From Acidobacteriota bacterium (GTDB lineage Bacteria; Acidobacteriota; Polarisedimenticolia; JACPZX01; DASXTC01): a stretch of DNA of 56,101 nt. A model generated the notes under the pieces. The model had not been told where the DNA came from, ran no database searches, and saw only the letters and a list, made by a program, of their open reading frames with translations. Every line of letters begins with the position of its first letter. Position 1 is the stretch's first letter. The stretch is taken from positions 1-56,101 of the forward strand of contig JAWPNA010000030.1 in the NCBI GenBank assembly GCA_045402695.1, written 5' to 3'. A program made the translations under genes and the position numbers. Of this stretch, positions 9,276-32,721 are shown piece after piece.

Positions 9276-9332
9276 GAATCAGACAAGCCGCGACAGGAAG
9301 GTGCCCGCAGGGCAGAGCCTGATCCCTTCGGA

Positions 9333-9500: not shown

Positions 9501-9525
9501 TTGCCGGAGGGTAGCCCGGTCGATC

Positions 9526-17011: not shown

Positions 17012-18321
17012 CGAGAGGACTCGGAAAGCGAAAGAGGCCGGTAGCCCGGAAGGTTGAGCATCGTATCCATGCTCGCGTACAGACCGTCGGTCGGGTGCCG
17101 GAACACGTTGCCGCTGAGGACGTGGGTCAGGTCGCGCCGGCACTGTGGATGGCGCTCGAGGAAGTGCTTGAAGTGGAACTCAGGGGCGTAGAAGGCGTAT
17201 ACGAGATGGCGTAGCGCTTCCATGCCTTCCACGAAACGCGGCCCGTGCCTGCCCAGCCGCGCGCCGGAGAAATCACCCGCCAAAAACGCCTCTCCGATGG
17301 CATCCGCGGTGAACTCGGCGCCCTTGAGCGCCAGCAGGACACCCGAGGAGTAGATCGGATCCAGAAAGCCGAAGGCGTCCCCCACGAGCACCCAGCCGTC
17401 ACCGGCGATTCGCTGGGAAATGTAGGAGAAATCCCTCAGGACCCTCATCCAGCCCACCTGCCGCGCGTTGGTCAGGCGGGGCTGCAGGGCCGGGCATCGC
17501 GCGACCTCTTCGTCGAGGATCTTTTGCGGATCTCCCGAGCGCCCTTTGATCAGATAGTCCATCAACCCCACGACGCCGACGCTGACGACGTCTCCGGCCA
17601 GCGGGATGTACCAGAACCACGCCTGCTCGTTGTCCGTGTGCAAGACGAGCGTGGCGCCTTCATCCCTTCCTTTGTCCCTGAGGGCGCCCTTGTAACGAGT
17701 GAACACGGCGGCGTTTTTCAGCTTCGAGTCGAACTGCTGCAGCTTCAACGTCTTCGCCAGCAGCGCAGCCTGGCCGGTTGCGTCCACAACCACCTTCGCA
17801 CGCGCCTCGGAGAGGCCGGCGCCTGGGATGTCCGCCCGCACGCCCACGGCACGGCCGCCCTCGAAGAGGACCTCCTGTACGGCGGCCCCCTGGCGGACAT
17901 CGACACCGGATTCGGCGGCGTGATCGAGCATGAGCTGGTCGAACTCGCCGCGATCCACTTGCCAGGTGCTCGACGATTCGTGCGGATCAGCATCCGAGAA
18001 GTAGAAGGGAACCGTCGGCCTGCCGTCCTTGATGAAGAACTGAACGCTGTGCTTTCGCGTGAAGTGGCTGGCCTTCAGTTTGTCCAGGATCCCCAGCCTC
18101 AGAAACGTCCAGTAGGTGGCCGGCATGAACGACTCGCCGATGCGGAACCGGGGAAACGTCTCCTTCTCCAGGAGCAGCACGCTCCTGCCCTGCTTCGCGA
18201 CCAGCGTGGCGGTGGCGGAGCCCGCCGGACCGCCGCCGATCACGATCACATCGACGCTGTTTGGTTTCTGCACCGGATGTCGCTCCACGCTCGGATCAGA
18301 ACTTGTATTGCGCGCCCGCAT
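17008..18321 (-). CDS. FAD-dependent oxidoreductase carrying both flavin-dependent-halogenase signature motifs
   Basis: Three motifs are present: GxGxxG (VIGGGPAGS), WxWxIP (WFWYIP, nt 17602-17619) and FxxPxxSxG (FLDPIYSSG, within 17341-17373). The start is either ATG 18321 (26-nt overlap with the TBDR gene) or GTG 18288. Confidence 0.8.
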   Translation of the reverse strand: MRARNTSSDPSVERHPVQKPNSVDVIVIGGGPAGSATATLVAKQGRSVLLLEKETFPRFRIGESFMPATYWTFLRLGILDKLKASHFTRKHSVQFFIKDGRPTVPFYFSDADPHESSSTWQVDRGEFDQLMLDHAAESGVDVRQGAAVQEVLFEGGRAVGVRADIPGAGLSEARAKVVVDATGQAALLAKTLKLQQFDSKLKNAAVFTRYKGALRDKGRDEGATLVLHTDNEQAWFWYIPLAGDVVSVGVVGLMDYLIKGRSGDPQKILDEEVARCPALQPRLTNARQVGWMRVLRDFSYISQRIAGDGWVLVGDAFGFLDPIYSSGVLLALKGAEFTADAIGEAFLAGDFSGARLGRHGPRFVEGMEALRHLVYAFYAPEFHFKHFLERHPQCRRDLTHVLSGNVFRHPTDGLYASMDTMLNLPGYRPLSLSESSR

Positions 18322-20482
18322 ATGCCGAGAACGGCGGCGCGGGAATCACGGAGCTCGATCCGAACCCTCGCGTCTCGTACTCCCGGCCGGTCAGGTTCTT
18401 CAGGTTGAGTCTGAACTCCCAGTCGCCGCGCGTGTACGAGACGGCGGCGTCGCACACGGCGTAGGAGCCGATCGTGAAGGCGTTGTCCTCCGCGATGAAC
18501 TGATCACCGACGAACCGGCCGCCGAGGGCCACGTTCCATCCCCCCGGCAGCCCCTTGCTCACCCACCCGTTCACGATGTGGCGTGGGGCGAACGCGGGGG
18601 TATTGCCCGACCGGTCGAACGTGGCGAAGATCGGCGTGAAGGTGTTGGGGTCGAACCCCACCACGAGCTGCTCCGAGAACCGCGTCAGCTCGGAATCGTT
18701 GAAGGCGTACGAGAGAAACGTCCGCAGGCGCGCGATGGGCTCAGCGGCGAACTCCACTTCGATCCCGCGCGAGAGCTGATCGCCGGCCTGCTGCGTGAAC
18801 CCGTTGTCGTCCACGATCGGTATGTTCTCGCGCTCCATCCGGTAGGCGGCGATCGTGAGCTGCAGCTTTCCACCCGATCGCTCCATCTTCGCGCCGACCT
18901 CGTACTGCCGGCTCCGCTCCGGCTCGCGCTCCCTCATCAGACGGTCCGACGGCGGCGCGAAGGCGCGGCCCGCGTTGGCGTAGAAGCTCAGGCTGCTCGT
19001 GGGGGAGTAGACCAGGCCGCCCATGGGGCTCACTTCGCTGTCACGCCGGGAGTTCACGCAGCCGTCGTCCTGCGGGGCGGCGGCGCAGGAGGGCCGGGAG
19101 GAGGCGGGGACACCGTCCTCGAAATCAATGACGTCCAGCCGGGCGCCGGCAAGAGCCGAGAAGCGCTCGGAGAACTTGATCTGATCGATGACGTACGGGG
19201 CCAGCACAAGGCTCTTCCACTCCCCCGCCGCGAGCTTTACCCCCGCGAAGGGCTGGCGGGCCGTCTCGACCGGATCGAAGAGATCGATCGACGGCAGGAA
19301 TGCGACATCGAGCGTGAAGTCGTCGCCGAAGCGCGCCGTCTCCAGTCCGGCCACGACCTCGTGCTCGACGGCGCCGGTCTTGGTGGAAAGGACGGCTTCG
19401 ACCTGATTGCTCGCGAACCGCTGGCGGTCGTCGAGCATCTGCAGCGCGCGCTGCACTTCGGGCCTAAAGGTGACGAAGCTCGGCGCCACACCGGTGATCA
19501 ACGTCCCGTCGGCCGTCCAATCGAGGTCGCGATAGTAGGTCTTGTTGCGCAGGCTCCAGGCATCGCTCAGCTTCACGTCGAAGTCAACCTGCACGCGCGA
19601 GAGCTGCTGGTCCGAACTGTCGAAGGGAGTCTGGTAGGATGTCGCCCTCGGCACGTCCGGGATCTCTCCGCCGAACAGAGGCAGGCCGCTGTCGGGCGCG
19701 TAGTCGGTGTCCACGTACTCGAGGTTCACGTTGAGGGAGGACTTTCCCCCGATGCGCCAGGTGAATGCGGGGTTCACCGCGAGGTTTCTGTTCTCCTTGT
19801 CGTCACGCCAGTAGTCCGACTGCCGCCACGTCGAGTTGAGCCGGAACGCCAGGGTCCCGTCCGTCGAGGCTTGGTTGTAGTCCACCGTCCCGTCATAGGT
19901 GCCGAACGATCCCGCCGATACGCCGGCCCGGCCGAACGTACCGGGCTGCGGCTGCCGGCGAACGATGTTGACGGCGCCCGCCAGCGGGTTGCTCCCGTAC
20001 AAGAGGCCTCCCGGGCCCTTCAGAACCTCCACGCGCTCGACGTTGTACATCTGGTAGAAGGCTGCCTCGGGCTCGGAAGCGCCGTCCGTCAGCACCAGCG
20101 AGCTGCTCAACGAGTCGAAGCCGCGGATCAGGAAGAAGTCCGTCACGCCGGACTGCGTCTGCACGTTCAATCCGCTGACGTTGAGCAGGGCATCGCCGAG
20201 GATGAGCGCGCCCTGCTCGTGCAGGAGCTGCTCGCCCACGGTACCGACATTGGCGGGCGTCAACCGGAGCATCAGCGGCAGCCGCGTGAGGATGGTGTTG
20301 GACGTCGGGATGTAGGGAAGGCTTCCCACCACGGTCACGTTCACGGGCGGCACGGCCGCCGCGGCCGTTGGGGGGACGGGGTTTTCATCGGCGCTGTCGC
20401 CCACCTCGGCGGACAGGATCGGCGGGGAGAGAAGCGCCGCGGCGAACAACAGTGGAGCGGTGGATCGCAAGATGCGCATCAT
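18296..20482 (-). CDS. TonB-dependent outer-membrane receptor
   Basis: Signal peptide MMRILRSTAPLLFAAALLSPPILSA. Plug-domain motifs are present (FLIRGF, VERVEVLKGPGGLLYGSNPLAGAVNIV). A long beta-barrel ends in a terminal aromatic residue (AGAQYKF). An AAGGAG RBS lies 5 nt upstream of the ATG. Confidence 0.9.
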   Translation of the reverse strand: MMRILRSTAPLLFAAALLSPPILSAEVGDSADENPVPPTAAAAVPPVNVTVVGSLPYIPTSNTILTRLPLMLRLTPANVGTVGEQLLHEQGALILGDALLNVSGLNVQTQSGVTDFFLIRGFDSLSSSLVLTDGASEPEAAFYQMYNVERVEVLKGPGGLLYGSNPLAGAVNIVRRQPQPGTFGRAGVSAGSFGTYDGTVDYNQASTDGTLAFRLNSTWRQSDYWRDDKENRNLAVNPAFTWRIGGKSSLNVNLEYVDTDYAPDSGLPLFGGEIPDVPRATSYQTPFDSSDQQLSRVQVDFDVKLSDAWSLRNKTYYRDLDWTADGTLITGVAPSFVTFRPEVQRALQMLDDRQRFASNQVEAVLSTKTGAVEHEVVAGLETARFGDDFTLDVAFLPSIDLFDPVETARQPFAGVKLAAGEWKSLVLAPYVIDQIKFSERFSALAGARLDVIDFEDGVPASSRPSCAAAPQDDGCVNSRRDSEVSPMGGLVYSPTSSLSFYANAGRAFAPPSDRLMREREPERSRQYEVGAKMERSGGKLQLTIAAYRMERENIPIVDDNGFTQQAGDQLSRGIEVEFAAEPIARLRTFLSYAFNDSELTRFSEQLVVGFDPNTFTPIFATFDRSGNTPAFAPRHIVNGWVSKGLPGGWNVALGGRFVGDQFIAEDNAFTIGSYAVCDAAVSYTRGDWEFRLNLKNLTGREYETRGFGSSSVIPAPPFSAYAGAQYKF

Positions 20483-20497: not shown

Positions 20498-21757
20498 TCA
20501 GCCCGCGAGATCCAGTGCCACCATGTCCTTCTGGTTGCGCAGGAAAAGTTTTTTTCCGGCCAGCGTGGGCATCGTCCAGGTCCGCCCCTCCAGGATCTGG
20601 GCTCTCGCCTTCTCCTTGTATCCCGCCGTCGTGGCCTCGGCCAGCGCCAGCAGCCCATCCTCGCTGAAGATGATCAGGTGGCCGTCCGCCAGCAGCAGCG
20701 ATCCTTTCTTGAAGCCCCGCTGGCTCCACTTCTCCTGCCCCGTGGCGGCGTCAACGCACTTCAGGGTCGCGTCGTCGAACCCGTAGATGTGGCCGCCGTT
20801 GAAGATCGAGGAGTTGAAATGGTTCTTCATGCTGCGGTTCTTCCACACCTCGGAGACATCGAACGTGTCGCCCGACTTCCTCACCGCGTACAACGCGCCG
20901 CCCGTGTCGTACGAGGAGGAGATGAAGACCTTGTCGGGCGGCACGAAGACCGGCATCGCGGCGTTCACGTCGTAGGAGGTCTTCCACGGCACGCTCCACA
21001 GCACCTTTCCATCGGCCGGAGCCACCGAGACGAGCGAAGAGCCCGCGAACGAGAGAATCTGCCGGACGCCCTGGATCTCCACCCCCAGAGGCGTCGAATA
21101 GCCGGGCCGGTCGGTGTAGGCGGTCCAGCGGGTTTCGCCCGTCTTCTTGTCGAGCGCCACGAGAGATTTGCCGGGGCCGCCTCCCGCGTCCATCAGCAAG
21201 AGGGCTCCCTCCACCACCGGAGACGTGGAGATGCCCCATTGCGGAACGCGGGCGCCGAAGGCGGCTTTCAGGTCCTTCTCCCAGACCTTCTCGCCCGTGG
21301 CCGTCCTGGCCGCGACGAGCATCCCCTGCGCGCCGAGGCCGTACACCAGGTCGCCATCCACCGTGGGGGTCGAGCGTGGGCCGTCACCCATGTCGTCCGA
21401 GCGCGTGGCGTCCACTTTCAGCCGCCAGATCTGCTTGCCATCCTCGGTGCCATAGCAGCCGAGAGCTTCATCGCCGGCGAGCGAGTACATCGTGTAAAGC
21501 CTGTTGCCCACGACGGACATGCCTGAGTAGCCGCCTCCGAGCGGCACTTTCCAGAGCACCTTCGGGCCGGCCTCAGGCCAGGTCTTCAGCAGTCCGGTTT
21601 CCGCGGAGACGCCGTCACTGGCCGGGCCGCGGTACTGGGGCCAGCCCGACTTGCCGGCGTCGGCGGCGGTTGCGGGAGGCGCCGCTGCGGCCGCGACGGC
21701 CACTGCGGTCATGACGATCGCGATCCGAAAGAGACGGGGGGCTTCGATGGGTCGCAT
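20498..21757 (-). CDS. Exported PQQ-like (BamB-like) beta-propeller repeat protein, paralogue P1
   Basis: An N-terminal signal or anchor is followed by GWPQYRGPASDGVSAETGL. Repeated blade motifs are present (G.LY.., DG...W). It is collinear with P6 (34120-35385). Confidence 0.85.
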   Translation of the reverse strand: MRPIEAPRLFRIAIVMTAVAVAAAAAPPATAADAGKSGWPQYRGPASDGVSAETGLLKTWPEAGPKVLWKVPLGGGYSGMSVVGNRLYTMYSLAGDEALGCYGTEDGKQIWRLKVDATRSDDMGDGPRSTPTVDGDLVYGLGAQGMLVAARTATGEKVWEKDLKAAFGARVPQWGISTSPVVEGALLLMDAGGGPGKSLVALDKKTGETRWTAYTDRPGYSTPLGVEIQGVRQILSFAGSSLVSVAPADGKVLWSVPWKTSYDVNAAMPVFVPPDKVFISSSYDTGGALYAVRKSGDTFDVSEVWKNRSMKNHFNSSIFNGGHIYGFDDATLKCVDAATGQEKWSQRGFKKGSLLLADGHLIIFSEDGLLALAEATTAGYKEKARAQILEGRTWTMPTLAGKKLFLRNQKDMVALDLAG

Positions 21758-21835: not shown

Positions 21836-23161
21836 TTACGTGTACCGCGCGTTGCGGTATTCGGTCTCGTAGAACTCGGGCAGCAGGCTGTCCACGCGAA
21901 GGAGCCCCTCACGCGTCAGATCCACTTGCCCCTCATTGACGCGGAGCATCCCGGTCTCCCGGAGGCGCTCGAACGCGGGGGCGAACGAGCTCAGGATCTC
22001 CACGCCGAACTTGTCCTTGAAGTAGTCGGTCCGGATCCGCCCCAGCTTGAGCTGAAGGATCATCTCCCTCAGAGGGCGCTGGGAAGGACTCGGCTTGAAC
22101 GCGCGGGCGAGGGGCAGTTCTCCCGCCTCGAGGCGGCCGAGGTAGTCCCCCCACTCGCTCGCGTTCTGCAAGTGGACACCGTTGAGGTGAGAGAACGAAG
22201 CCACCCCTGCGCCAAGCATGTCGCTGCCGTGCCAGACGGCGTCGCGGTAGACGAACCGGGCATCGCGGTCCTTCTTCACCATCGTGTAGGCGCTGGAGAT
22301 CTCGTAGCCGTGCGAGCCCAGCTCATTGATGGCGTGGTCGTGCCACGCTCTCCTGAGAGTCCCATCGGGAAGAGACAGCTCGCGCTTTCCGCCCAGCAGG
22401 TCCTGCGAGAACACCGTGTTGTACGGCAGCTCCATCTGGTAGATCGTGACGCTGTCGGGATCGAGCTCGATGGTCCTGCGCACCGATTCGCGCCACCTCT
22501 CCCAGCTCTCTCCCACCATGCCCGCGATCAGATCGATGTTGAGCTGATCGAAGGCGAGCGCCTTGATCCAAGGGATCACGCGGAAGATCTCGGCCGACAG
22601 GTGCGCGCGGCCGTTTTCCTTGAGGATCTCGTCGTTGAAGTTCTCCACTCCCAGGCTCAGTCGCGTGACGCCGATTTCACGGATCGCTTCCAGCTTCGCC
22701 TGGGTGAGCGTGCCCGGCTCGCACTCGAACGTGATCTCCTCGGCGCCGCTCCACGGAAGTTCGCTCTTCAGGTCTGAAGCCAGGGCCCGCAGGTCGCGTG
22801 CGCTGATGAAGGATGGCGTGCCGCCACCGAAGTAGACGAACCTGAGGGATCGGCCCGTCACGGCGGGCATCCGGCCGTAGAGGCGCACCTCCTTCGTCAG
22901 GGCGGAGAGATACGCGCGCACCTGCGCGCTGTCCATTTCCGTGTAGACCTTGTAGTAGCAGAACTTGCACCTGATGCGGCAGAAGGGAATGTGCAGGTAG
23001 AGCCCGAGGGTCGCCCCCGGCGAAGGCGGCGCGTCCAGCGCCTCCATCGCGGCGGGAACCTGATCCGCCGTCCAGGCCGAGTAGGGTGGATAGTTGGAGA
23101 TGAAGACGCTGCCGACCTCCGCCGGCTGCCCGGTCTTCACTGTCGCTTCCCCAGGCATCAT
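21836..23161 (-). CDS. HemN-like radical SAM enzyme (coproporphyrinogen-III-oxidase family; HemN/HemW/ChuW-type)
   Basis: The CxxxCxxC cluster motif HIPFCRIRCKFCYYK lies at nt 22958-22981, and the GGGTP motif (YFGGGTPSF) is present. The 441-aa length is typical of HemN-like proteins. The ATGATG start overlaps the upstream stop. Confidence 0.9.
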   Translation of the reverse strand: MMPGEATVKTGQPAEVGSVFISNYPPYSAWTADQVPAAMEALDAPPSPGATLGLYLHIPFCRIRCKFCYYKVYTEMDSAQVRAYLSALTKEVRLYGRMPAVTGRSLRFVYFGGGTPSFISARDLRALASDLKSELPWSGAEEITFECEPGTLTQAKLEAIREIGVTRLSLGVENFNDEILKENGRAHLSAEIFRVIPWIKALAFDQLNIDLIAGMVGESWERWRESVRRTIELDPDSVTIYQMELPYNTVFSQDLLGGKRELSLPDGTLRRAWHDHAINELGSHGYEISSAYTMVKKDRDARFVYRDAVWHGSDMLGAGVASFSHLNGVHLQNASEWGDYLGRLEAGELPLARAFKPSPSQRPLREMILQLKLGRIRTDYFKDKFGVEILSSFAPAFERLRETGMLRVNEGQVDLTREGLLRVDSLLPEFYETEYRNARYT

Positions 23162-24303
23162 TTCGCTCCGAACGCGTACATCACGCCATCCGTGGTTCCG
23201 ATCAGCAGGCGGCCCGCGGCCACGGCGGGAGAGGCGGTGATCGAGGAGCCGGTCTCGAACCGCCAGAGAAGCTCCCCCGTCGTCAGGTTCAGGGCCATGA
23301 TGTCGCCGCCTGTCGTGGCGGTGAAGACCCGCTCACCCACGATGACGGGGGAGGAGTCGACCTTCGCGCGCGCCGAGTAGATCCAGAGGGATCTGCCGGT
23401 CGCGGCGTCGAGGGCGTGCACCATCTTGTCGCGGCCGCCCACCACGACGATCGACCCGGACACGGCCGCCGAGGAGTAGTAGGGGAACTTCCTCTCCGGG
23501 TGCTCGTAGCGCCAGACGACTTTCGGCGTTTCGAGATCGATGCCCAGCACTTCGTTCTCGAACGTGCCCACGTAGGCGCGCCCACCGTCCACGGCCGGGC
23601 TGGCCCCGACGTACGATCCGAGCTCCAGCTTCTTGAGCTCCGCGCCGTCCCTGGCGCGCACCACGCGCAGATATCCGTCGCATCCCGCCGAGACGATGAC
23701 GGGCTCTCGAGAATCGCCGGCGAGGGCGGGCGTCCCGTATACATAGCTGCCCGTGGCCAGCTTCCATGCGAGCTTGCCGTCCGATACCGACAGCGCGTAG
23801 AGATTGTTGTCGTTGGATCCGAAGATGACGTTGCCCGAGGCGACCGTGGCCGACGAGACGATCGCGGCATCGGCCTGGAAGACGAAGCGGCGCTTGCCGT
23901 CCCGCACGTTTACCGCGTGAAAGACCCCTTTCTCGTCGCCGAAGTACACGGTGTCGTCGAAGATCGATGGGGAGGACTTGATGGGGGCGCCGCCCTCGTA
24001 TGTCCACTTCCGCTCACCGGAGCCAAGCGCCACGCAGTAGAGGTGCCCATCGAGTGATCCGAACAAGACCGAGCCCTGCCGCACGGCCGCGGTGGACTCG
24101 ATGTCCCCTCCGGCCTGGAATGTCCAGAGCCGATCCAGGCTGCGAGGCAGATCGCCGCGCGCCACACCCGTGAGGTGCGTGTCGCCGCGGAAGATGGGCC
24201 ACTCCTCGGCGGCAGGCTGTCCCGCGGGCCGGTTCACGCTTGCTGTCCCCAGCAGGAACATGAGGGCGAGCGCCGCGGCCATCATATTAGTAAGCCGACT
24301 CAT
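23158..24303 (-). CDS. Exported PQQ-like (BamB-like) beta-propeller repeat protein, paralogue P2
   Basis: Signal peptide MSRLTNMMAAALALMFLLGTASV, then EEWPIFRGDTHLTG. Regular ~40-aa blades are present (DGHLYCVALGSGERKW, NNLYALSVSDGKLAW, DKMVHALDAATGRSLW, GDIMALNLTTGELLW). Confidence 0.85.
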   Translation of the reverse strand: MSRLTNMMAAALALMFLLGTASVNRPAGQPAAEEWPIFRGDTHLTGVARGDLPRSLDRLWTFQAGGDIESTAAVRQGSVLFGSLDGHLYCVALGSGERKWTYEGGAPIKSSPSIFDDTVYFGDEKGVFHAVNVRDGKRRFVFQADAAIVSSATVASGNVIFGSNDNNLYALSVSDGKLAWKLATGSYVYGTPALAGDSREPVIVSAGCDGYLRVVRARDGAELKKLELGSYVGASPAVDGGRAYVGTFENEVLGIDLETPKVVWRYEHPERKFPYYSSAAVSGSIVVVGGRDKMVHALDAATGRSLWIYSARAKVDSSPVIVGERVFTATTGGDIMALNLTTGELLWRFETGSSITASPAVAAGRLLIGTTDGVMYAFGAK

Positions 24304-25486
24304 ACAGCGTCCTCAGATCCCGCTCGGCCACGGGCCGCGGGTTGAACTCGGCTGTCCACTGCTGGGCGGCCTCCCCCGCGAGCCGCGCAAGCGCCTCTTC
24401 GGGGACCCCGGCGTCGCGCAGTCTCGCCGGCAGTCCGCCCAGATCCCTCATCCACGTCACTCGCTCAGCCATCCCTCCCGAGCCGCCGCTCTCATCGGCC
24501 TTCAGCAACTCCGCGTACATCCGCCCCGCGACCGGCTCGTTGTACCGGATCACGTGGGGAAGCATCAGCAGGACCGCGGCGCCGTGCGCCACGCCGTAGC
24601 CCGACGTCAGCGGGTTCGCGCAGGCATGGGCCGCGCCCAGCATCGAAGCCTCGATCGCCGCGCCCGCCAGATGCGCTCCTAGCAGCATCCGGCCGCGCGC
24701 CTCGGCATCCGCGGGACCGGTCAGGGCGGATGCGAAGGCGCTCGAGAGCAGTGACCAGGCCTGCCGCGCGAGCATCCGGGAGATCGGGTTGCCTCGGGTG
24801 CTCACGTAGCTCTCGATGGCGTGGGAGATCGCATCCAGACCGGAGACGGCGGCCAGACCGCGCGGGCAGGTGGCCGTGAGCTCCGGGTCAAGGATCACCG
24901 CGGCAAAGCGCGCCTTCTCGTCACCGCAAGCCATCTTCCGGCGCGAGCCCTCCTGCTCGATAAGGGCATACGACTGCATCTCGCTTCCCGTCCCCGCGGT
25001 GGTGGGGATGCCGATCGAACGGAGCATCGGCTTGACGGCGCGGCCGGTCCCCCAGTAATCCTCCATGCGGCCGCCGTTGGTGACGAGGAAGTTGATCCCC
25101 TTGGCGCAGTCCATGGCGCTTCCGCCCCCCAGCCCCACGATGAGGTCCATGCCCTGCCCGCGCGCGAAGGCCGCCCCCTCCTCGACGTGGCGGGTCGTCG
25201 GGTTCACGTCCACGCCGTCGAAGATCGACACGCGCAAAGATTCCGACGCGAGCGAAGCCTCGGCGCGGGCGGCGTGGCCCGCCTTGCGCACCCCTGGATC
25301 GGTCACCAGCAGGACGCGCCGGGCGTGAAGCTCCGCGGCCAGCCCCCCCAGACCGGCGAGCGTCCCCGCGCCGAAGATGACGCTCGCGCCGCCGAAGGGA
25401 GCCCTCCACAAGCCCAAGGAGCGCTCCGCGCTCAGGCACGCGGTGGCCCCCGAGGGGATCATGAACCGTCTATCCTGAGTCGCCAT
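24287..25486 (-). CDS. Iron-containing (group III) alcohol dehydrogenase
   Basis: GGGSAMDCAKG (GGGSxxD), PTTAGTGSE and the His-rich metal site HACANPLTSGYGVAHGAA are all present. Confidence 0.9.
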   Translation of the reverse strand: MATQDRRFMIPSGATACLSAERSLGLWRAPFGGASVIFGAGTLAGLGGLAAELHARRVLLVTDPGVRKAGHAARAEASLASESLRVSIFDGVDVNPTTRHVEEGAAFARGQGMDLIVGLGGGSAMDCAKGINFLVTNGGRMEDYWGTGRAVKPMLRSIGIPTTAGTGSEMQSYALIEQEGSRRKMACGDEKARFAAVILDPELTATCPRGLAAVSGLDAISHAIESYVSTRGNPISRMLARQAWSLLSSAFASALTGPADAEARGRMLLGAHLAGAAIEASMLGAAHACANPLTSGYGVAHGAAVLLMLPHVIRYNEPVAGRMYAELLKADESGGSGGMAERVTWMRDLGGLPARLRDAGVPEEALARLAGEAAQQWTAEFNPRPVAERDLRTLYESAY

Positions 25487-25495
25487 GCGATGACC

Positions 25496-26926
25496 TCACG
25501 CCGCCGGGGCGGTCTGCACCGCCCGCTGCCGGTACAGGTGCTCGAAGAGGTTTCCTTCGTGGGGCTGATCCCATGACACCCGGCAGGTGGGGATCTCTCC
25601 CAGGTTGAGCCGGTCGATCGTGGGACAATCCAGCAGCTCGACCACGAAGTCCTGGTCCCGGGTCAGCGCGGTGGCCACCAGCGTCGGGCCGATCCGGGCC
25701 GCCATCTCACACTGGTTCACCTGCACCACCGTGGCGAATGGGAACAGGAATTCGCAGCCCGCCAGTGGATGTTCCGGATCCTCGCACCAGACCAGCGTCG
25801 GCCTCAGGAACGTGCACCCATCCACCTGCACGACCCTCTCCGCGTCGCGCGCGCGCGCCGTGAGGTCCTCCGCCCCCGGCACCCTCAGCAATCGATCGAT
25901 GTGCTCCGAGATCGCGATCGCCTGCCGCCTGTCCGTGAAGGCCGCGAGCGACGCGGCAGGATCATTGAGGGGCCGCGGTTCGATCGCCGCCAACCGGCCG
26001 GCCAGAGCCTCGGCGATCTCGCGGCCGTGCCCCGCGGTCCACACCCCTGAAGCGTTGAGGCAGGATCTGCCGCCGTTCTCGGCGATCGATGTGACCATCA
26101 GATCCAGGTGGCCCCTATATGAGGCCGCCGCGTCTTCATCCAGAATCACCTTGCTCCATCCCGGGCCGTGGAGCTGCACACGCGGGTCGTCCTGCCACGC
26201 CCGCAGCGTGCCCGCGTCGCCGAACAGCATCGAGCGACCGCACCGCAGCAGGATCTCGTTGGCGCCCGAATGATCGCTCGGATAGAGACTGAACGCCTGA
26301 GGCGGCGCACCCGCGGCCATCAGCGCCCGCGCGATGCGCAGAGGCGTCCACGGCTCCTGGCGTCCCGGCTTCAGGACCAGCGGCATCTTGAGAGGGAAGG
26401 CGGGCACCCAGAGCGAGTGCACGCCGGGCGAGTTGGAAGGAAGCACCGCGCCGAGAGCCTCCGTCTGCCCGATGTAGGAGACGCCGCGATCCGCCTCCGT
26501 CCCCCATCCGCGGTCCAGGATCGAGAGAGGAAGGCCGCGCGTCCAGCCTGCAAGCACCCGTCGCATTTCGTGCAGCACGAAGCGGATCTTCTCCATGTTG
26601 GCGCGGCAGAGTGCCAGCGGCATCCCCGTCGTGGAGGACAGATGATCGAGGTATTGCGCGGGAGAGTGCGACGTGGCGCCGTCCACCGGGAGATCGCTCT
26701 GCGAGAACATATAAGCCGCCTTCCCGCAGATCGCGATGAGATCCTCCGTCTCGCGCCGTCTCAGGATCCCGCGGTTGCGACCGGCCTGGAGGAGATCCAT
26801 GGCGATCAGGCCTCGATTGGCCTGGCTCACCTCGGCCACTGTCTCTCCGGTGCGCGCGTCCTTCAGGCGGAAGAGATCGAGGCTGCGGTATGGTCGGCCG
26901 GCGCGCAGGACGGGGACGTGGAGCAT
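25496..26926 (-). CDS. Aldehyde-dehydrogenase-superfamily protein, possibly an acylating/thioester-reducing (LuxC-like) type
   Basis: The ALDH core VLPSNSPGVHSLWVPAFPLKMPLVLKPGRQEP and the catalytic-Cys context ENGGRSCLNASGVW are present. I place the start at MLHVPVLRAG (ATG 26926-26924), which overlaps the upstream stop as TGATG. Confidence 0.8.
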   Translation of the reverse strand: MLHVPVLRAGRPYRSLDLFRLKDARTGETVAEVSQANRGLIAMDLLQAGRNRGILRRRETEDLIAICGKAAYMFSQSDLPVDGATSHSPAQYLDHLSSTTGMPLALCRANMEKIRFVLHEMRRVLAGWTRGLPLSILDRGWGTEADRGVSYIGQTEALGAVLPSNSPGVHSLWVPAFPLKMPLVLKPGRQEPWTPLRIARALMAAGAPPQAFSLYPSDHSGANEILLRCGRSMLFGDAGTLRAWQDDPRVQLHGPGWSKVILDEDAAASYRGHLDLMVTSIAENGGRSCLNASGVWTAGHGREIAEALAGRLAAIEPRPLNDPAASLAAFTDRRQAIAISEHIDRLLRVPGAEDLTARARDAERVVQVDGCTFLRPTLVWCEDPEHPLAGCEFLFPFATVVQVNQCEMAARIGPTLVATALTRDQDFVVELLDCPTIDRLNLGEIPTCRVSWDQPHEGNLFEHLYRQRAVQTAPAA

Positions 26927-28023
26927 CAGTAGACTCCCACTACGACGCTTTCCTGAAGAGAAGTGAGCAGCCTCAGGTTCGACACTCCGTCCCACGGAAA
27001 CCGCTCGCAGGGACGGGCGCGCTCCCCCTCGTCTCTCTCGAGGAAGCGCGGCATGAAGAAGTCCCGCGTCAGCGTGGTCAGCATCACGCGGCCGGTCTCG
27101 CCGTAGGCGACGGGAGTCTCGGGATCGTCGGGCCGCACCAGCTCGAAGACGGCACGCGGGGAGGGCGGGTAGTAGGTGATCGCGTAATCATCGGCCGGAT
27201 CGAACGGCTTGGGGCAGGCCAGCCCCATCAGCGTGTTGCCGTAGGTCGGAACGAAGTCGATGCCCGGCGCCAGCTCCTCGCGCACGAAGCGGTGAAACTG
27301 CGCCGTCATCTCCGTCCCGCCGCAGAAGATGCCGGTGATCCCCGCGTTTTTAAGGGAGATCCTCTCGCACAGAGCCTCCAGCAGCTTCGGCGTGGTGAAG
27401 AGGCACCGGATCGAGTCGTGTCCCTTGAGGACCTTCAGCGCCTGATCGATCACGTGGCTCTTGTAGGCCTGAAGCTCCCTGAAGCGATGGTCCTTCACGA
27501 TCTGATTGACCCAGCGCGGGTCCAGGTCCACGAAGAAGGCGATGCCTCCCCGGTGCTGGGCGAGATGCTCGATCGAGAGGCGCAGCCGCCGCGGCCCCGT
27601 CGGGCCGAGCATCAGCCAGTCGGCGCCGCGGGGAAAGGCGGTGGCGGAAAGCGTCTCGCTGAACATCTCATAGTCAATCTGGAAGTCCTCGATGTTGAGC
27701 CGTGTCTTGGGCATGCCCGTGGAGCCTCCCGTCTCGAAGGCGAACATCGGCTTGCCCGCGAGACCCGCCGGCAGCCACCGGCGCGCCGGGCCCCCGCGCA
27801 GCCACTCGTCCTGGAAGTGGCCCAGCAGCTTCAGGTCGTCGTAGCCGCGGATCCTCTCTTTCGGATCGAAGCCGAGCGATGCCGCGAACTCCAGCCAGAA
27901 GGGGGAGCCGGTCTGACGACTGAAGTGCCAGCTCACCATCTCACGCACGTGCGCATCGAGCCGCGCGCGCGCGGCGGCGTGCTCCTGCTCCAGCGCCGCT
28001 GACTGTGTCTCCCGCATGGTCAT
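26926..28023 (-). CDS. Adenylate-forming enzyme of the PaaK / coenzyme-F390-synthetase / LuxE-like (ANL) group
   Basis: The P-loop-like motif FETGGSTGMPK corresponds to SSGTTGKP in PaaK. The ~365-aa size fits. Start options are GTG 28062 (overlaps the P3 stop as TAGTG), ATG 28023 or ATG 28017. The last is 6 nt after GGGAG and is best supported. Confidence 0.75.
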   Translation of the reverse strand: MTMRETQSAALEQEHAAARARLDAHVREMVSWHFSRQTGSPFWLEFAASLGFDPKERIRGYDDLKLLGHFQDEWLRGGPARRWLPAGLAGKPMFAFETGGSTGMPKTRLNIEDFQIDYEMFSETLSATAFPRGADWLMLGPTGPRRLRLSIEHLAQHRGGIAFFVDLDPRWVNQIVKDHRFRELQAYKSHVIDQALKVLKGHDSIRCLFTTPKLLEALCERISLKNAGITGIFCGGTEMTAQFHRFVREELAPGIDFVPTYGNTLMGLACPKPFDPADDYAITYYPPSPRAVFELVRPDDPETPVAYGETGRVMLTTLTRDFFMPRFLERDEGERARPCERFPWDGVSNLRLLTSLQESVVVGVY

Positions 28024-28061: not shown

Positions 28062-29654
28062 CTACGGTCCGGCCGGATGCCTGGCCGCCGCGATACCGCC
28101 GGCGAGGGCGAACAGCTTCGTGCGGCTGACGATGTACAAGACACCGTCCTTGGCCGTGGGGGTCGTGTAGACGGCATTGCCCATGTTGATCTCCGCGATC
28201 AACTCAGGCTTCTTGCCCTCCCTGAAGACCGCCACGTCGCCGTCCTCATCGCCGATGTAGACCTTTCCGTCCGCCACGAAGGGTGACCCCCAGACCGCGG
28301 CGGCCAGGTCGTGCGTCCATTGGTGCTGTCCCGTGCGCGCGTCCAGGCAGTAGAGAAAGCCGTTGAGATCGGCCGCGTACAGAAGCCCGTCGTGGATCGC
28401 CACCGATGAAATCGTGCGGTGGAAGTCCTGATTGCCCCGATGCCACACCATTGCCGTCTGGGTGACGTCGCCTGTCTTCGTGGCGTCGATGGCCCACAGG
28501 TGTCCGATTCCCTCGCCGTGCTCCGGGTCCTGGCCCACGCCGACGAACACCTTGTCCTCCCAGATGACCGGTGTCGCGATGATCTCGTTTCTCGTCCCGC
28601 GCCCGCCCAGGACGTACACAGCGTCCTTCGGGTTGGCGTCGAACTTCCAGATCTGCTTGCCCGTCTCGGGCTCGAAGGAGTAGACCCAGCCGTCTCCGCC
28701 GGGAATGATCACCTGCGGTTTCCCCTTGATGACACCGTATGCTGGGTTGGACCAGGAGCCGTGCAGGATGTGCTCGCGCGGGGAGGCGTCCTCCCACACG
28801 AGCTTGCCGGTGTTCTTGTCGAGCGCGATGAAGCTGGGCGCGTCGGGCGACGGGATGTTCACGTGCCCTTCGTCAACACCGTTACCCGTCACCGTGAACA
28901 GCAAGTCGCCGGCCACGAGAGGGCTGCCCGCGGCGAGGTTGTGCGGGAAGACCGCGAGATTCCCCATCATGTCGAACTTCCAGACGATGTCCTCGTCGAC
29001 CTCGCTGGCGTCGGACTCCTGCGTGAAGGGACCATCGTTTTCGCCGTCCATGAACCCTTCGGTGTCGGCGCAGATCACCTCGGCGCGGTTGGAGACGTAG
29101 TAGATGCGATCGCCGTGCACGTACGGCGTCGAGCAGACCCCCTGCATCGGCCAGTCGTTCACCATTCCCGCCGGCAGCTTGGGATGGGCGGCCTGCCAGA
29201 GGAATTTGCCGTCCGCCGCGCTGAAGGCCATGACCACGCCGCGATCGCTCTTGAGCTTCGGGTTGCGCAGCCCTTCGTTGTTGGTGCCGACGAAGACCTT
29301 GCCGCGGTACACCACGGGTCCCGCGTAGGTCTGCGATCCCAGCGCGGCAACCCACTTGATGTTCAGGCCGGTGGCCGGGTCCCACATCTGAGGAAGCCCC
29401 TTCTCGTCGGACACCTGGTTGCGCGAGAGGGTCTGGCCGAAAAGGGCTGGAGCCCCAGGGGCGCCGGCCGCGCCGGACGTCCCTGCCGGGGGCTTGCCGG
29501 CGTCCGCCGGTTTCGCCTGGCCCGCAGGGGCCGCGGGCATTGTCTGCGCCGCGGGGCCGGTCTGCTTGGTCTGCGCCGTGGCGCGCGCGCCCGCCGCGAG
29601 AGCCACCGCGGCGAGGATGAGGCCGCAGGTCGCGAACAACCATCGCTTCGTCAT
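28062..29654 (-). CDS. Exported PQQ-like beta-propeller repeat protein, paralogue P3, with Ala/Pro/Gly-rich linker
   Basis: Signal peptide MTKRWLFATCGLILAAVALAAGARA, then the low-complexity stretch TAQTKQTGPAAQTMPAAPAGQAKPADAGKPPAGTSGAAGAPGAP, then propeller blades. The ATG overlaps the P4 stop (ATGA at 29651-29654). Confidence 0.85.
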   Translation of the reverse strand: MTKRWLFATCGLILAAVALAAGARATAQTKQTGPAAQTMPAAPAGQAKPADAGKPPAGTSGAAGAPGAPALFGQTLSRNQVSDEKGLPQMWDPATGLNIKWVAALGSQTYAGPVVYRGKVFVGTNNEGLRNPKLKSDRGVVMAFSAADGKFLWQAAHPKLPAGMVNDWPMQGVCSTPYVHGDRIYYVSNRAEVICADTEGFMDGENDGPFTQESDASEVDEDIVWKFDMMGNLAVFPHNLAAGSPLVAGDLLFTVTGNGVDEGHVNIPSPDAPSFIALDKNTGKLVWEDASPREHILHGSWSNPAYGVIKGKPQVIIPGGDGWVYSFEPETGKQIWKFDANPKDAVYVLGGRGTRNEIIATPVIWEDKVFVGVGQDPEHGEGIGHLWAIDATKTGDVTQTAMVWHRGNQDFHRTISSVAIHDGLLYAADLNGFLYCLDARTGQHQWTHDLAAAVWGSPFVADGKVYIGDEDGDVAVFREGKKPELIAEINMGNAVYTTPTAKDGVLYIVSRTKLFALAGGIAAARHPAGP

Positions 29655-31876
29655 CGTGGGTTCACCGTCACCTTGACCTTGTCATAGAAGATGTCCGCCG
29701 CCGAGTATCCGTACAGACCAGGGCTGCCCTGCCGGATGGGCAGAGGATCCTCCGCCTCGATGGTCCATCCTTCGGGCTCAGCGGAGGAAGCCGGCCAGAC
29801 CTTGCCCCGGATGAACGCCTTGTCCTGCTTGATCTCCACCGTCAGCTTCATCGTGTACCAGACATCGGGATCCCAGGCGAAATCGACCGTCTGCTGCAGC
29901 CTGGGCTCCACCTCCACCCAGTCGCGAAGCTGGAGCCTCTTGTGGTTGCCCATCAGGTCGAGCGTGTAGCCCGAGGCGATGAGCCCCATGTCGGGACGCC
30001 ATCGGCCCTTGATCGAGCCCATCAGGTCCGCCTGTATGGTGTAGCCGCTCATCGTGGGTGGGCCGATGAAAAGGCTGGAGCGCTCGAGCCCTTGATCCAT
30101 GAACGGCTTGGTCAGCACCTTGTTGCCCCCCTTGTCGGCCACGACGAACCGGCTGGCGCCACCGACCCAGTATGGGGGGTTCTTGCCGATCTCGATCCCC
30201 TCGAACTCCTCCTGCCAGGGAAGATCGGCGAAGACCCTCACGCGCGCCGTGGCCTTGAGGTCGCCGGCCTGAAGCGTCACGAGGCCGGCCTGCGATCCGC
30301 GCGCGCGATCGGGTGTGAGCCGGCCCTGCGCGTCGATCTTGCCGATCAGGCCTTGCAGCCCCCACGTGCCGGCCACATCACCGATCATCCGGCCGGCGGC
30401 GTCAAATGCAAGCGCTCTGAACGCCACCGTTTCACCCGGCTTGACGACCACTTCCGCCGGAAGCACTTGGAGCCACGACGCGCGCGCCCCGGCTTCGGCC
30501 TTTGCCTCGGGAGGAAGATCCGCCTTGCCGGCCGAGAGAGCGAACCGAGCCTTCTTGTCGCCGAGGCAGTAGAGACCCTCCTCGGTCGTGAAGTAGACAC
30601 GGCCGTAGGCGATGGCGGGGGAGCCGTACGTCTCGGCGGGCCGTTCCCCCTTCACCAGGATTTGCTCTTTATCCAGCGAGACGGCCTGCGCCGCTTCCGG
30701 GCGGAGAATGTGGAAGCCTCCGTTCACCTCCGTGGCGAAGATCTTTCCATCCGCCCAGACCGGCGATCCCTTTCCGACGGTTCCGAGGTTGTACTGCCAC
30801 CGGCGCTTTCCATCCGCGGCATCCAGGGCGAACATGTTGGCCGAGTCATCCACGACGTACAGTGTGTCGCCGTGGAGCAGCGGTGAGGCGAACCCCACCT
30901 CCAGCTCGTCGGCGCGCCAGATCTCGCCGGTCTTGGTGATGTCGCCCGAGCCGGAGCCGTCGATGCAGACCACGCGACCCTTGGTTCCCTCGTCTATGTT
31001 CTCGTCTCCGCTGGTGGCGTACACCCGATCGCCGTCCACCACCACGGACGTGTTCATCCCCTGCTTGCTCAACTGGAAGCTCCACACCTTCTCGCCGGTG
31101 GAGGCCTTCAAGGCATAGATCCAACCGTCTCCATTCCCCCCGAAGAGCAACCGCTGCCCTTTGATCACCCCCGCCACCTGGGTGGCCTGCGTTGTCATCG
31201 GATCGGGTTTTCCTCCTGGTGCCGATGCCCAGGCCAGCTCGCCCGTCCTCTTGTCGAAGGCGAAGTATCGGTGGCGCGGCGCTCCCTGATCGCCCCACCC
31301 GAAGTTGGAGAAACCGAGGACCACGTGGTCCCCGTCCAGCATGGGTGAGTGGGTGCGTCCCCCATAGCCGGAGACGCGCCCGAACTCCTCCGTCAGCGAT
31401 CGCGACCAGACGATCTCTCCCTTGCGGTCGAGGCACAGGAACAGTCCCCCCACGCCGTGCGCGTAGAGGTACCCGGTCTGAGGGTCGGCCACGATGTTGG
31501 CCCATCCCGCCCGCGTGAAGGGGACGGTCGTGTGATAGACGTTGATCCTGTGCTCCCAGAGCCGCCGGCCGCTCTCCGCGCTGAAGCAGGCCACGACCTC
31601 CTGCTTGGTGATGCCGCTTCCGGTCCTCCCCATGACGCAGACGCGTCCGTCGAATACCACCGGAGTGGAACGGCCGATGAAGTCCGCCTTCCAGATCAGG
31701 TTCTCTCCCGAGGTGGACCAGGTGGAGACGAGGCCTGTCTCATCCGAGACCCCGTTCTGGTGGGGACCGCGCCATGAGGCCCATTCGGAGGCCCGGACGG
31801 ATGGGGTGCCGAGGGCAGCGAGCCCGGGCACGAGGATGCAGGTCAATGCGATCGCCAAACCTCGGATGATCTTCAT
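29651..31876 (-). CDS. Exported PQQ-like beta-propeller (P4) fused to a Big_2-like Ig domain and a C-terminal LamG/DUF1080-like jelly-roll
   Basis: Signal peptide MKIIRGLAIALTCILVPGLAALG, then EWASWRGPHQNGVSDETGL. The propeller spans about 430 aa. An Ig-like segment follows (VLPAEVVVKPGETVAFRALAFDAAGR...TARVRVF). The ~230-aa C-terminal domain ends in GLYGYSAADIFYDKVKVTVN. Confidence 0.85.
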   Translation of the reverse strand: MKIIRGLAIALTCILVPGLAALGTPSVRASEWASWRGPHQNGVSDETGLVSTWSTSGENLIWKADFIGRSTPVVFDGRVCVMGRTGSGITKQEVVACFSAESGRRLWEHRINVYHTTVPFTRAGWANIVADPQTGYLYAHGVGGLFLCLDRKGEIVWSRSLTEEFGRVSGYGGRTHSPMLDGDHVVLGFSNFGWGDQGAPRHRYFAFDKRTGELAWASAPGGKPDPMTTQATQVAGVIKGQRLLFGGNGDGWIYALKASTGEKVWSFQLSKQGMNTSVVVDGDRVYATSGDENIDEGTKGRVVCIDGSGSGDITKTGEIWRADELEVGFASPLLHGDTLYVVDDSANMFALDAADGKRRWQYNLGTVGKGSPVWADGKIFATEVNGGFHILRPEAAQAVSLDKEQILVKGERPAETYGSPAIAYGRVYFTTEEGLYCLGDKKARFALSAGKADLPPEAKAEAGARASWLQVLPAEVVVKPGETVAFRALAFDAAGRMIGDVAGTWGLQGLIGKIDAQGRLTPDRARGSQAGLVTLQAGDLKATARVRVFADLPWQEEFEGIEIGKNPPYWVGGASRFVVADKGGNKVLTKPFMDQGLERSSLFIGPPTMSGYTIQADLMGSIKGRWRPDMGLIASGYTLDLMGNHKRLQLRDWVEVEPRLQQTVDFAWDPDVWYTMKLTVEIKQDKAFIRGKVWPASSAEPEGWTIEAEDPLPIRQGSPGLYGYSAADIFYDKVKVTVNPR

Positions 31877-32051: not shown

Positions 32052-32618
32052 TTACATCCTCCGGGGCGAAGCAACGGGAGCGGGCCCGGCGGACGGGGAG
32101 ATCACGCCCGCGGCGGGGGAGGGGGCCTCGGGCTTGTAGAGCGACACGAGACATCCACCTGCCGCCGCCAGTGCGATGCCCAGCAGGAACTGCCAGCGCA
32201 ATGTCCTGAGTCCTCCGGCCGGGGGATGCATCGCGAAGGCGGTGAGCGCGTTGACGATCGGGGCCCCCGCGAACACGATCGACATGACCACTCCGGGCGA
32301 GCCCTTGGCCCCGAATGCCAGCAGAACGCAGAAGGCGCCCGCCGCTCCGACCAACCCCGCCAGCAGCGACCAGGCGACGCCGCGCGCGGGAAAGTGCCAC
32401 GAGGAGCCGCGGAGGATCAACAGCGCCAGGGGCGCCAGCACGGCGGTAAGAAAGTAGGCGATGCCGACGAACAGGAAGGCTCGGTAGCGCCCGTTGACCG
32501 GATCGGCCATCGAGGTCTGGCCGGCGTGCAGAAAGACGCCGTACAGCCCCCAGGTCAAGACGGTCATAAGGGCGAACACCAGCCAGTGAATGCCCGTCTC
32601 CGCCGCGCCCCCTGACAT
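32052..32618 (-). CDS. Small polytopic inner-membrane protein (EamA/DMT-like half-transporter?)
   Basis: About 5 predicted TM helices (HWLVFALMTVLTWGLYGVFL, FLFVGIAYFLTAVLAPLALLIL, and others). ATG at 32618 is preceded by a GGAGG RBS with 6-nt spacing. The longer ORF start at 32660 was rejected. Confidence 0.7.
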   Translation of the reverse strand: MSGGAAETGIHWLVFALMTVLTWGLYGVFLHAGQTSMADPVNGRYRAFLFVGIAYFLTAVLAPLALLILRGSSWHFPARGVAWSLLAGLVGAAGAFCVLLAFGAKGSPGVVMSIVFAGAPIVNALTAFAMHPPAGGLRTLRWQFLLGIALAAAGGCLVSLYKPEAPSPAAGVISPSAGPAPVASPRRM

Positions 32619-32721
32619 CTTCTGCCTCCATTCGTTGCGTGAGCTGCGACAGGATAACATGGGCAGCCGCTCGCTCCTCGTGCATCATCGGCGCGCGACT
32701 CTTCTGCGGGGAGGCACGCCA

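Follow-up and report, generated by a model that had tools for sequence, protein, structure and literature searches.

The DNA examined here is a stretch of 56,101 nt from an Acidobacteriota bacterium (assembly GCA_045402695.1, contig JAWPNA010000030.1, forward-strand positions 1 to 56,101; GTDB lineage Bacteria; Acidobacteriota; Polarisedimenticolia; JACPZX01; DASXTC01), referred to below as the window. It has a GC content of ∼67% and contains a train of minus-strand genes running from ∼32.6 kb down to 9.5 kb. Within this train lie three consecutive genes, all on the minus strand, for an adenylating enzyme of 365 amino acids (aa) that comprises only the N-terminal domain of the ANL superfamily (the ligase; 26926..28023), a 476-aa protein with an aldehyde dehydrogenase (ALDH) fold (25496..26926), and a 399-aa group III iron-containing alcohol dehydrogenase (Fe-ADH; 24287..25486). 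The open reading frame list places all three exactly where an initial annotation had put them; that annotation proposed a LuxE/LuxC-like module reducing a carboxylic acid through an aldehyde to an alcohol. We consider it probable that the ligase and the ALDH-fold protein together constitute a two-protein carboxylic acid reductase of the EhpF/EhpG type and that the Fe-ADH serves as the accompanying alcohol dehydrogenase. This prediction draws on homology, architecture, residue conservation, and synteny, from which the chemistry is inferred.

At the junction of the ligase and ALDH-fold genes, the DNA reads ...gga gtc tac TGATG ctc cac, with one base common to the stop and start codons. The TGA stop codon of the ALDH-fold gene is followed by 9 nt (ggtcatcgc) and then by the ATG of the Fe-ADH gene; this gap and the TGATG overlap had both been described before and are evident in the nucleotide sequence. 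Two start codons are possible for the ligase, ATG 28023 and ATG 28017, of which the second is better spaced from a GGGAG ribosome-binding site. A scan for promoters and terminators inside the operon returned no signal above chance.

As judged by alignment, the ligase is a homologue of EhpF over its full length and consists of the ANL N-terminal domain alone. In a phmmer search of the PDB, EhpF (3hgu and 3l2k) was its sole solved-structure match (E value, 1e-40; residues 24 to 365 on 25 to 369), and BLASTP against EhpF encoded on a Pantoea agglomerans plasmid gave 31% identity end to end (E value, 1e-44). Motifs common to the two proteins are WHFxxxTGxPFWL, D(L/I)DPRWV, and ERD. The P-loop FETGGSTGMPK, recognized in the initial annotation, is present at residues 96 to 106 and is invariant in 59 to 61 of 61 orthologues at each fixed position, and the Pfam AMP-binding score is 21.2 bits, under the gathering cutoff of 29.9 bits. 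The ligase gene is single copy in the genome. The LuxE model (PF04443) did not match the ligase even at an E value of ≤10, and the earlier LuxE-type label therefore gives way to EhpF as the closest relative.

The C terminus separates the ligase from PaaK. A hinge comparison included orthologues from seven phyla, EhpF (369 aa), two more EhpF-type proteins, and one true PaaK-type ligase (from the related locus L068). All EhpF-type proteins ended in ...(V/I)(V/E)GVY (...VVVGVY in the window ligase and ...VIEGVY in EhpF), and at the hinge where EhpF, the Burkholderia and Streptomyces homologues, and the window ligase stop, the PaaK-type ligase runs on for ∼70 aa into its C-terminal domain. Neither of the C-terminal subdomain models PF13193 and PF14535 matched the ligase in Pfam, NCBIfam gave no PaaK match, and the window contains no paa genes. 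The length of 365 aa had been reported correctly, but the ligase does not belong to the size class of PaaK, being ∼60 to 70 aa shorter because the C-terminal subdomain is absent. A ligase of the PaaK or F390 synthetase type was consequently rejected, and the firm grouping with phenylacetate-CoA ligases in a paa context that the initial annotation had weighed against its own proposal was not observed. ANL enzymes need the C-terminal subdomain for thioester formation. The window ligase is therefore predicted to adenylate its substrate but not to go on to a CoA thioester.

The ALDH-fold protein is, on the evidence of alignments and phylogeny, a homologue of EhpG over its full length and stands apart from ordinary ALDHs. 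Residues 283 to 293 read ENGGRSCLNAS, the catalytic Cys context noted previously, with the catalytic residue at Cys289. HMMER alignments to three solved ALDHs place Cys289 on the catalytic Cys and His253 on the general-base Glu, Glu268 of ordinary ALDHs (vqlHgpgwsk on v.lEaGGks). When the five ordinary ALDHs encoded by this genome were aligned with it in MAFFT, all of them had LE(L/M)GGK/N at the general-base motif, whereas the window protein had His. Both alignments agree with the loss of Glu that had been read by eye from LHGPGWSK opposite ELGGKS. EhpG-type proteins have H, Q, L, R, or Y followed by GPG(R/W)SK at the base motif (Gln in EhpG itself), and the catalytic Cys, the oxyanion Asn (Asn165 in the window protein), and Glu399 are kept in all aligned EhpG-type and ordinary ALDH proteins. 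N165, H253, C289, and E392 of the window protein are invariant in 71/71 orthologues. Because the active-site residues of the pair are invariant or near-invariant across orthologues, they are not there by chance. At position 195 the residue is Arg or Ser but in no case Glu, which weakly hints at NADPH.

Database scores agree with this assignment. The window protein scores 33.8 to 34.8 bits against PF00171 (Aldedh), compared with 446 to 610 bits for the five ordinary ALDHs, and its best solved-ALDH match (E value, 1.8e-7) is far weaker than its match to Pantoea EhpG, for which tblastn on plasmids gave an E value of 1e-24 with 98% of the query covered and BLASTP gave an E value of 5e-32 with 24% identity over the full length. 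In a maximum-likelihood tree, an EhpG-type clade comprising the window family, a Halomarina homologue, EhpG, and Burkholderia and Streptomyces proteins (support, 98/96) is distinct from the ordinary ALDHs (100/100). An ordinary aldehyde oxidase, which a retained Glu and a grouping with ordinary ALDHs would have indicated, is ruled out by the alignment and tree. The LuxC model (PF05893) did not match the ALDH-fold protein even at an E value of ≤10 and found nothing in the whole genome at ≤0.01, so that the genome has no LuxC and the LuxC-type designation is replaced by EhpG. The AlphaFold model has an ALDH fold (pLDDT, 82.9; pTM, 0.86), and a structure search with it returned generic ALDH folds only (TM score of ∼0.7, 14 to 20% identity), with no closer solved relative of the EhpG, GriD, or LuxC type.

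Two further features of the ALDH-fold family were observed. Near the C terminus, WD(Q/S)PHEGNLF (residues 452 to 461), invariant in the clade and corresponding to D.PH(E/D)G.L in EhpG, stands in place of the PFGGxKxSGxGRE of ordinary ALDHs, in a region of low model confidence; it may be part of a docking or acyl-AMP site. The sixth PF00171 match in the genome (L095; G000:C365), with 74.6 bits, has GVGPGN at the general-base position and looks like a CoA-acylating aldehyde dehydrogenase of the EutE/PduP/AdhE type. It is the second ALDH-fold enzyme of the genome to lack the Glu and is not related to the EhpG clade.

These features bear on a CoA-dependent route, in which a PaaK-type CoA ligase and a CoA-acylating aldehyde dehydrogenase of the PduP/EutE type would convert an acid to an aldehyde through acyl-CoA. 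The GPG of the Glu-less motif resembles the GVGPGN of the putative acylating enzyme, a 4HBT thioesterase is encoded in the operon, and a true PaaK-type ligase is added in some Latescibacterota loci. Nevertheless, the route is highly improbable for the window pair, as the ligase is without the C-terminal subdomain (PF14535) required for thioester formation and without a PaaK match in NCBIfam, and the ALDH-fold protein groups with EhpG rather than with L095.

The third gene product is an Fe-ADH by its matches to PF00465 (156.7 bits) and PF25137 (124.7 bits) in Pfam and to methanol dehydrogenase, ADH2, and FucO in the PDB (E values, 1e-57 to 1e-46). Its metal ligands (D200, H222, H287, and H301) and NAD motif (GGGSxMD) are invariant in 47/47 orthologues, which upholds the earlier description of an Fe-ADH following the ALDH-fold gene and indicates that its metal and NAD sites are intact.

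We predict the following sequence of reactions for an EhpF/EhpG-type reductase with an alcohol dehydrogenase. (i) By homology, the ligase without a C-terminal domain would use ATP and a free carboxylic acid to form an acyl-adenylate. (ii) The acyl group would then move to Cys289 of the reductase as a thioester. (iii) NAD(P)H would reduce the thioester to the aldehyde, in a reversal of the first half-reaction of ALDHs; reduction rather than hydrolysis of the thioester is expected because the general-base Glu is absent. (iv) The Fe-ADH, given its coupling and intact active site, may turn the aldehyde into a primary alcohol. The acid-to-aldehyde-to-alcohol logic of the initial annotation is thus supported at the level of sequence, because translational coupling links an adenylating enzyme to an ALDH-fold protein that retains the Cys but not the Glu, and an intact Fe-ADH follows; its LuxE/LuxC family label is not, the relatives being EhpF and EhpG, with the same gene order and overlap.

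The pair is widespread. The ALDH-fold family has >8000 database matches at 60 to 72% identity, and a scan of one genome per species located the pair in at least 593 species, in the Acidobacteriota, Poribacteria, Latescibacterota, Calditrichota, Gemmatimonadota, and KSB1. Among sampled Acidobacteriota, one copy was present in 80/301 genomes (27%) and in 52/186 genera. The clade is strongly constrained: identity across phyla is 55 to 72%, with all catalytic residues invariant, and the ligase has an unusually high median identity of 71.6% across the fetched loci. The ligase gene is upstream of the reductase gene in 60 of the 63 loci with room for it. On the reductase tree, phylum labels change 8 times, compared with a minimum of 5 and a mean of 27.9 for shuffled labels. 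The tree therefore largely follows the phyla, which favors retention over a long time and speaks against an antibiotic cluster that has moved recently.

The arrangement of the pair varies in Poribacteria. In loci L017 to L086, the ligase and reductase genes lie 1 to 8 kb apart, and the products of the genes inserted between them include a small six-bladed propeller that resembles Vgb lyase (233 aa, 24 loci), a thiamine pyrophosphate (TPP) enzyme, a PhyH-type dioxygenase, a creatininase-family protein, a methyltransferase, a sulfatase, and an M19 dipeptidase. A search with a concatenated ligase and reductase query also recovered apparent ligase-reductase(-ADH) fusions among metagenome proteins of the European Nucleotide Archive (P0121, P0122, P0123, and P0126; 703 to 1258 aa). 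These were rejected as assembly artifacts: junctions and C termini consist of frameshifted nonsense, which arises from frameshifts in high-GC assemblies, in which wrong frames remain open. Such fusions are a caution for domain-architecture mining.

The three genes appear to form the cytoplasmic core of an operon of 14 to 16 genes conserved across phyla. On the basis of tblastn of the window operon proteins against 80 fetched loci, the canonical gene order is propeller741, propeller530, ligase, reductase, Fe-ADH, propeller381, radical S-adenosylmethionine (SAM) enzyme, propeller419, TonB receptor, halogenase, symporter, GT4 glycosyltransferase, thioesterase, and ATP-binding cassette (ABC) transporter. 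In the window, all are on the minus strand. The first two genes encode exported PQQ-like (BamB-like) beta-propellers of 741 aa (29651-31876) and 530 aa (28062-29654; median identity, 68.5%), both assigned by Pfam PQQ_2 and both matched in the PDB by BamB and PQQ-repeat proteins only; they are upstream of the pair in 63 to 64 of the 80 loci. A third exported propeller, of 381 aa (23158-24303), was assigned by Pfam, and a fourth propeller, of 419 aa, is encoded at 20498-21757. The 381-aa propeller scores above the cutoff of PF13570, a model for the propeller found in the animal beta-alanine-activating enzyme ACSF4/AASDH; that enzyme has an adenylation domain fused to the propeller, whereas in the window the adenylating enzyme is cytoplasmic and the propellers have signal peptides.

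Between the genes of the 381-aa and 419-aa propellers lies that of a 441-aa HemN-like, class-C radical SAM enzyme (21836-23161), with matches to HemN (1olt; E value, 1e-31) and the NocN methyltransferase (9p2u; 5e-30) and with the CxxxCxxC motif in 41/41 orthologues. It is followed, beyond the 419-aa propeller gene, by a TonB-dependent receptor of the siderophore type (18296-20482), which scores 257 bits against TIGR01783 (cutoff, 223.5) and has the catecholate receptor Fiu as its nearest equivalog. The next gene (17008-18321) encodes a flavin-dependent halogenase with matches to 8zop (2.4e-68) and CndH (2.8e-53) and with PltA and Bmp2 as further PDB relatives. Its catalytic Lys (K90, aligned with K76 of CndH), WxWxIP motif (WFWYIP), and FxDPxxSxG motif (FLDPIYSSG) are each found in 20/20 orthologues, and these residues identify the flavin adenine dinucleotide (FAD) enzyme as a genuine flavin-dependent halogenase type. 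As the operon has no carrier protein, a free phenolic or pyrrolic compound is the probable substrate of the halogenase.

The remaining genes, assigned by Pfam/NCBIfam, encode a sodium:solute symporter (15321-16874), a GT4 glycosyltransferase (14005-15324), a YbgC/4HBT thioesterase (13578-13994), a LolD/MacB/DevA-like ABC ATPase (12885-13568), and a large FtsX-type permease (9526 to ∼12900); the glycosyltransferase and thioesterase had been placed correctly in the initial annotation. The GT4 gene follows the halogenase and symporter genes in 3/3 loci whose fetched flank reaches far enough, and GT4, thioesterase, and ABC genes occur together in loci L078, L081 (the cultured Acidobacteria bacterium Mor1, CP011806), and L029. 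The rest of the window outside the operon consists of unrelated genes.

Several other observations concern the operon. A small multipass membrane protein (∼190 to 200 aa) without a family match heads the gene train (32052-32660, minus strand) and recurs at this position, ∼70% identical, in one Latescibacterota locus as well as in the most closely related Polarisedimenticolia loci. Together, the TonB receptor and the MacB/LolD/DevA-like ABC exporter (9526-13568) form an export and re-uptake layout like that of a metallophore system. An extra true PaaK-type ligase (AMP-binding plus AMP-binding_C_2; 425 aa) lies between the TonB receptor and halogenase genes in L068 (18801-20078) and is found in 16 other Latescibacterota or Gemmatimonadota loci; the window does not have it. 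Finally, a ribosomally synthesized peptide (RiPP) or peptide-cofactor system, built on a QhpG/LodB-like FAD enzyme, a radical SAM enzyme, and an ABC transporter, was considered and rejected: the FAD enzyme is a halogenase with a catalytic Lys and WxWxIP, and the tightly packed operon leaves no space for a precursor peptide gene.

Relatives of the pair provide clues to the substrate. In Pantoea pASB05p2, the EhpF gene (7859-8959) and the EhpG gene (8959-10380) lie inside phzA/B-D-E-F-G, and relatives in Burkholderia are likewise beside the phenazine core. On Streptomyces plasmids, pairs of this type are next to DAHP synthase and PabB (Streptomyces sp. Mg1) and next to isochorismate synthase/PhzF-like genes (Streptomyces NBC_01426). 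All relatives with an interpretable context thus occur with genes for chorismate-derived aromatic acids. Because of these contexts, the flavin halogenase, and the NocN/HemN-like class-C radical SAM enzyme, an aromatic (phenolic) acid is more likely to be the substrate than a fatty acid; the catecholate-type (Fiu-like) TonB receptor is a further clue to an aromatic substrate. Such an acid would probably also be halogenated and C-methylated; it may enter through the TonB receptor and symporter, and the resulting alcohol may be glycosylated and exported.

The same evidence bears on a LuxE/LuxC-family fatty acid reductase, whose fatty aldehyde product would be converted to a fatty alcohol by the Fe-ADH and to an alkyl glycoside by GT4 and then exported by a DevA/MacB-like transporter, as with heterocyst glycolipids. 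The chemistry would follow a similar logic, the thioesterase, GT4, and LolD/MacB/DevA-like exporter are all in the operon, EhpG itself has a weak, subthreshold LuxC match (18.5 bits), and the Joint Genome Institute (JGI) names homologues "acyl-CoA reductase-like." We nonetheless regard this alternative as unlikely. First, PF04443 and PF05893 are unmatched by the pair and the genome has no LuxC. Second, the operon encodes a halogenase and a class-C radical SAM enzyme, which act on electron-rich aromatic carbons. Third, the interpretable contexts of relatives are all aromatic. Fourth, the operon contains no fatty acid synthase, polyketide synthase, or carrier protein. An aromatic product is accordingly judged likelier than the fatty alcohol or alkyl glycoside suggested initially.

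Several points weigh against an EhpF/EhpG-type reductase coupled to an alcohol dehydrogenase. Identity is just 31% to EhpF and 24% to EhpG, and confidence in the reductase model is low at the active-site loops (residues 159 to 169 and 252 to 255). The activity of EhpF and EhpG is reportedly itself a proposal, made by Bera and colleagues in 2010 from a knockout and a structure, and the likeness to the grixazone enzymes GriC and GriD is one of described chemistry. There is also no evident source of a known aromatic substrate: UbiC, an Rv2949c-type lyase, PhzA/B, and GriH were all absent from the genome, which is 92% complete. Phenazine-1,6-dicarboxylate, 3-amino-4-hydroxybenzoate (3,4-AHBA), and chorismate lyase-derived 4-hydroxybenzoate of the cell's own making were rejected as substrates on these grounds (absence of PhzA/B, of a GriH-type DHQS II, and of UbiC and an Rv2949c-type lyase, respectively). 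The acid would therefore be either imported, through the TonB receptor and symporter, or supplied by another, undescribed route.

A further point is the invariant His253, which could serve as a substitute base and permit the oxidizing direction. The two proteins might then not be a reductase pair at all: the EhpF-like enzyme would form an amide or ester when an amine or alcohol captures the adenylate, a mode proposed for BagE and YtkN, and the ALDH-fold protein would oxidize an aldehyde with His253 as the base. BagE and YtkN are given as the best MIBiG matches of the adenylation domains of "Halo_AMP" clusters from the same taxa (preprint; bioRxiv 10.64898/2026.08.03.742642). This interpretation is improbable, however, given that the two genes are tied by their stop/start overlap and by co-occurrence in 60/63 loci, that EhpF and EhpG, homologues of the two proteins, are encoded in the same order, that other members of the EhpG group have Q, L, R, or Y at the base position, none of which could serve as a hydrolytic base, and that the operon has no conserved enzyme to supply an amine.

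The last point concerns the Fe-ADH, which is downstream of the reductase gene in 50/69 loci with room. Linkage is tighter from the Fe-ADH to the 381-aa propeller (49/50 loci) and from this propeller to the radical SAM enzyme (45/46), and in many Poribacteria the Fe-ADH-propeller-radical SAM unit is missing or lies several kilobases from the ligase-reductase pair. The Fe-ADH may therefore not act on the reductase product. The pair could be a carboxylate reductase while the Fe-ADH serves a module with the propeller and radical SAM enzyme, or has a regulatory role like that of ErcA, its best NCBIfam match (258 bits, under the model cutoff); the aldehyde would then be the functional intermediate, for condensation or periplasmic chemistry. 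An aldehyde is a used intermediate in grixazone biosynthesis (PMC10179220). Such a division of labor is possible but not expected: the Fe-ADH gene begins 9 nt after the reductase gene in the window and within 150 nt in 32/56 loci, its metal and NAD sites are intact and invariant, and the EhpF/EhpG pathway likewise reaches a hydroxymethyl group (PMC3175449). Reduction of an acid to an alcohol by all three enzymes consequently remains the preferred interpretation.

We also postulate, as a tentative extension, that the three genes are the cytoplasmic engine of an undescribed and largely vertically inherited small-molecule system that spans six or more phyla and at least 593 species. An aromatic acid, possibly imported via the TonB receptor and symporter, would be halogenated, C-methylated, and reduced, and the alcohol may then be glycosylated and exported by the MacB-like transporter, with the participation of four to six periplasmic PQQ-like propellers and a siderophore-type TonB receptor. 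If true, the product would not be an antibiotic limited to individual strains but a metallophore of a new class, or else a cofactor or redox mediator of the periplasm. Once its function is solved, the pair could provide a compact, phosphopantetheine-independent acid reductase for biocatalysis, and the result would give a function to an operon found repeatedly in soil and sediment bacteria and among sponge symbionts and would explain its exported PQQ-like propellers. More immediately, the analysis corrects a tempting misannotation, whether as LuxE/LuxC or as PaaK with an ordinary aldehyde dehydrogenase.

No paper on the function of the window operon was found in a literature search. The "Halo_AMP" clusters of sponge microbiomes, reported from Acidobacteriota, Latescibacterota, and Poribacteria, contain an AMP-binding enzyme, flavin halogenase, PQQ-like domains, radical SAM enzyme, TonB transporter, glycosyltransferase, and thioesterase (bioRxiv 10.64898/2026.08.03.742642) and very likely belong to the same operon family. 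The preprint differs from the present analysis in reading the adenylation domain as a PaaK-like peptide or amide ligase; the reductase pair was not recognized, and no product was described.

The net reaction proposed for the window genes is also that of type I carboxylic acid reductases. These enzymes (Nocardia/Mycobacterium Car), with adenylation, peptidyl carrier protein, and reductase domains (A-PCP-R), convert an acid to an aldehyde with ATP and NADPH, need a phosphopantetheinyl transferase, and are often combined with an alcohol dehydrogenase and a glycosyltransferase in engineered pathways to aromatic alcohol glycosides. In contrast, the window reductase has an ALDH fold and no short-chain dehydrogenase/reductase (SDR)-type domain, and its proposed acyl carrier is an enzyme Cys rather than phosphopantetheine; Pfam gave no PP-binding or NAD_binding_4 match in the three proteins or their neighbors. 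In LuxE/LuxC, a small ANL-clan enzyme activates an acyl group with ATP, a Cys of the ALDH-fold reductase carries it as a thioester, and NADPH reduces it to the aldehyde. The window pair is proposed to share this working logic, but it falls outside the LuxE and LuxC models, and its substrate is probably not a fatty acid. The acyltransferase LuxD and the luciferase LuxAB had no Pfam/NCBIfam match among the operon genes.

Another precedent is GriC/GriD of grixazone biosynthesis in Streptomyces griseus, in which an AMP-binding protein is paired with an ALDH-type partner and the mechanism is as proposed here: GriC converts 3,4-AHBA to its acyl-AMP, which GriD then reduces to the aldehyde (PMC10179220, citing Suzuki 2007). 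The substrate of that pair is made by GriI and GriH, whereas the window genome has no GriH-type enzyme.

The closest system is EhpF/EhpG from the D-alanylgriseoluteic acid phenazine cluster of P. agglomerans (EhpF structures 3hgu, 3hgv, and 3l2k), in which ehpF is described as AMP-binding and ehpG as a member of the aldehyde dehydrogenase family (PMC11278526). Both proteins are homologous over their full lengths to the window pair and share a ligase that has no C-terminal domain and ends in ...GVY, an ALDH-fold partner that lacks the Glu but retains Cys and Asn, and an identical gene order with an overlapping junction. Griseoluteic acid, the product of the EhpF/EhpG pathway, bears a 6-hydroxymethyl group (PMC3175449), and that pathway therefore also appears to proceed from acid to alcohol. 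The window clade differs in having an invariant His at the base position, where EhpG has Gln, in having a dedicated Fe-ADH, in belonging to a genome without phenazine genes, and in its placement in a multiphylum propeller/TonB/radical SAM/halogenase operon rather than an antibiotic cluster. Two-protein (carrier-free) carboxylate reductases have so far come from a few antibiotic pathways and are barely characterized; the window pair is a separate, widespread clade of this little-studied kind of enzyme pair, in a new genomic context.

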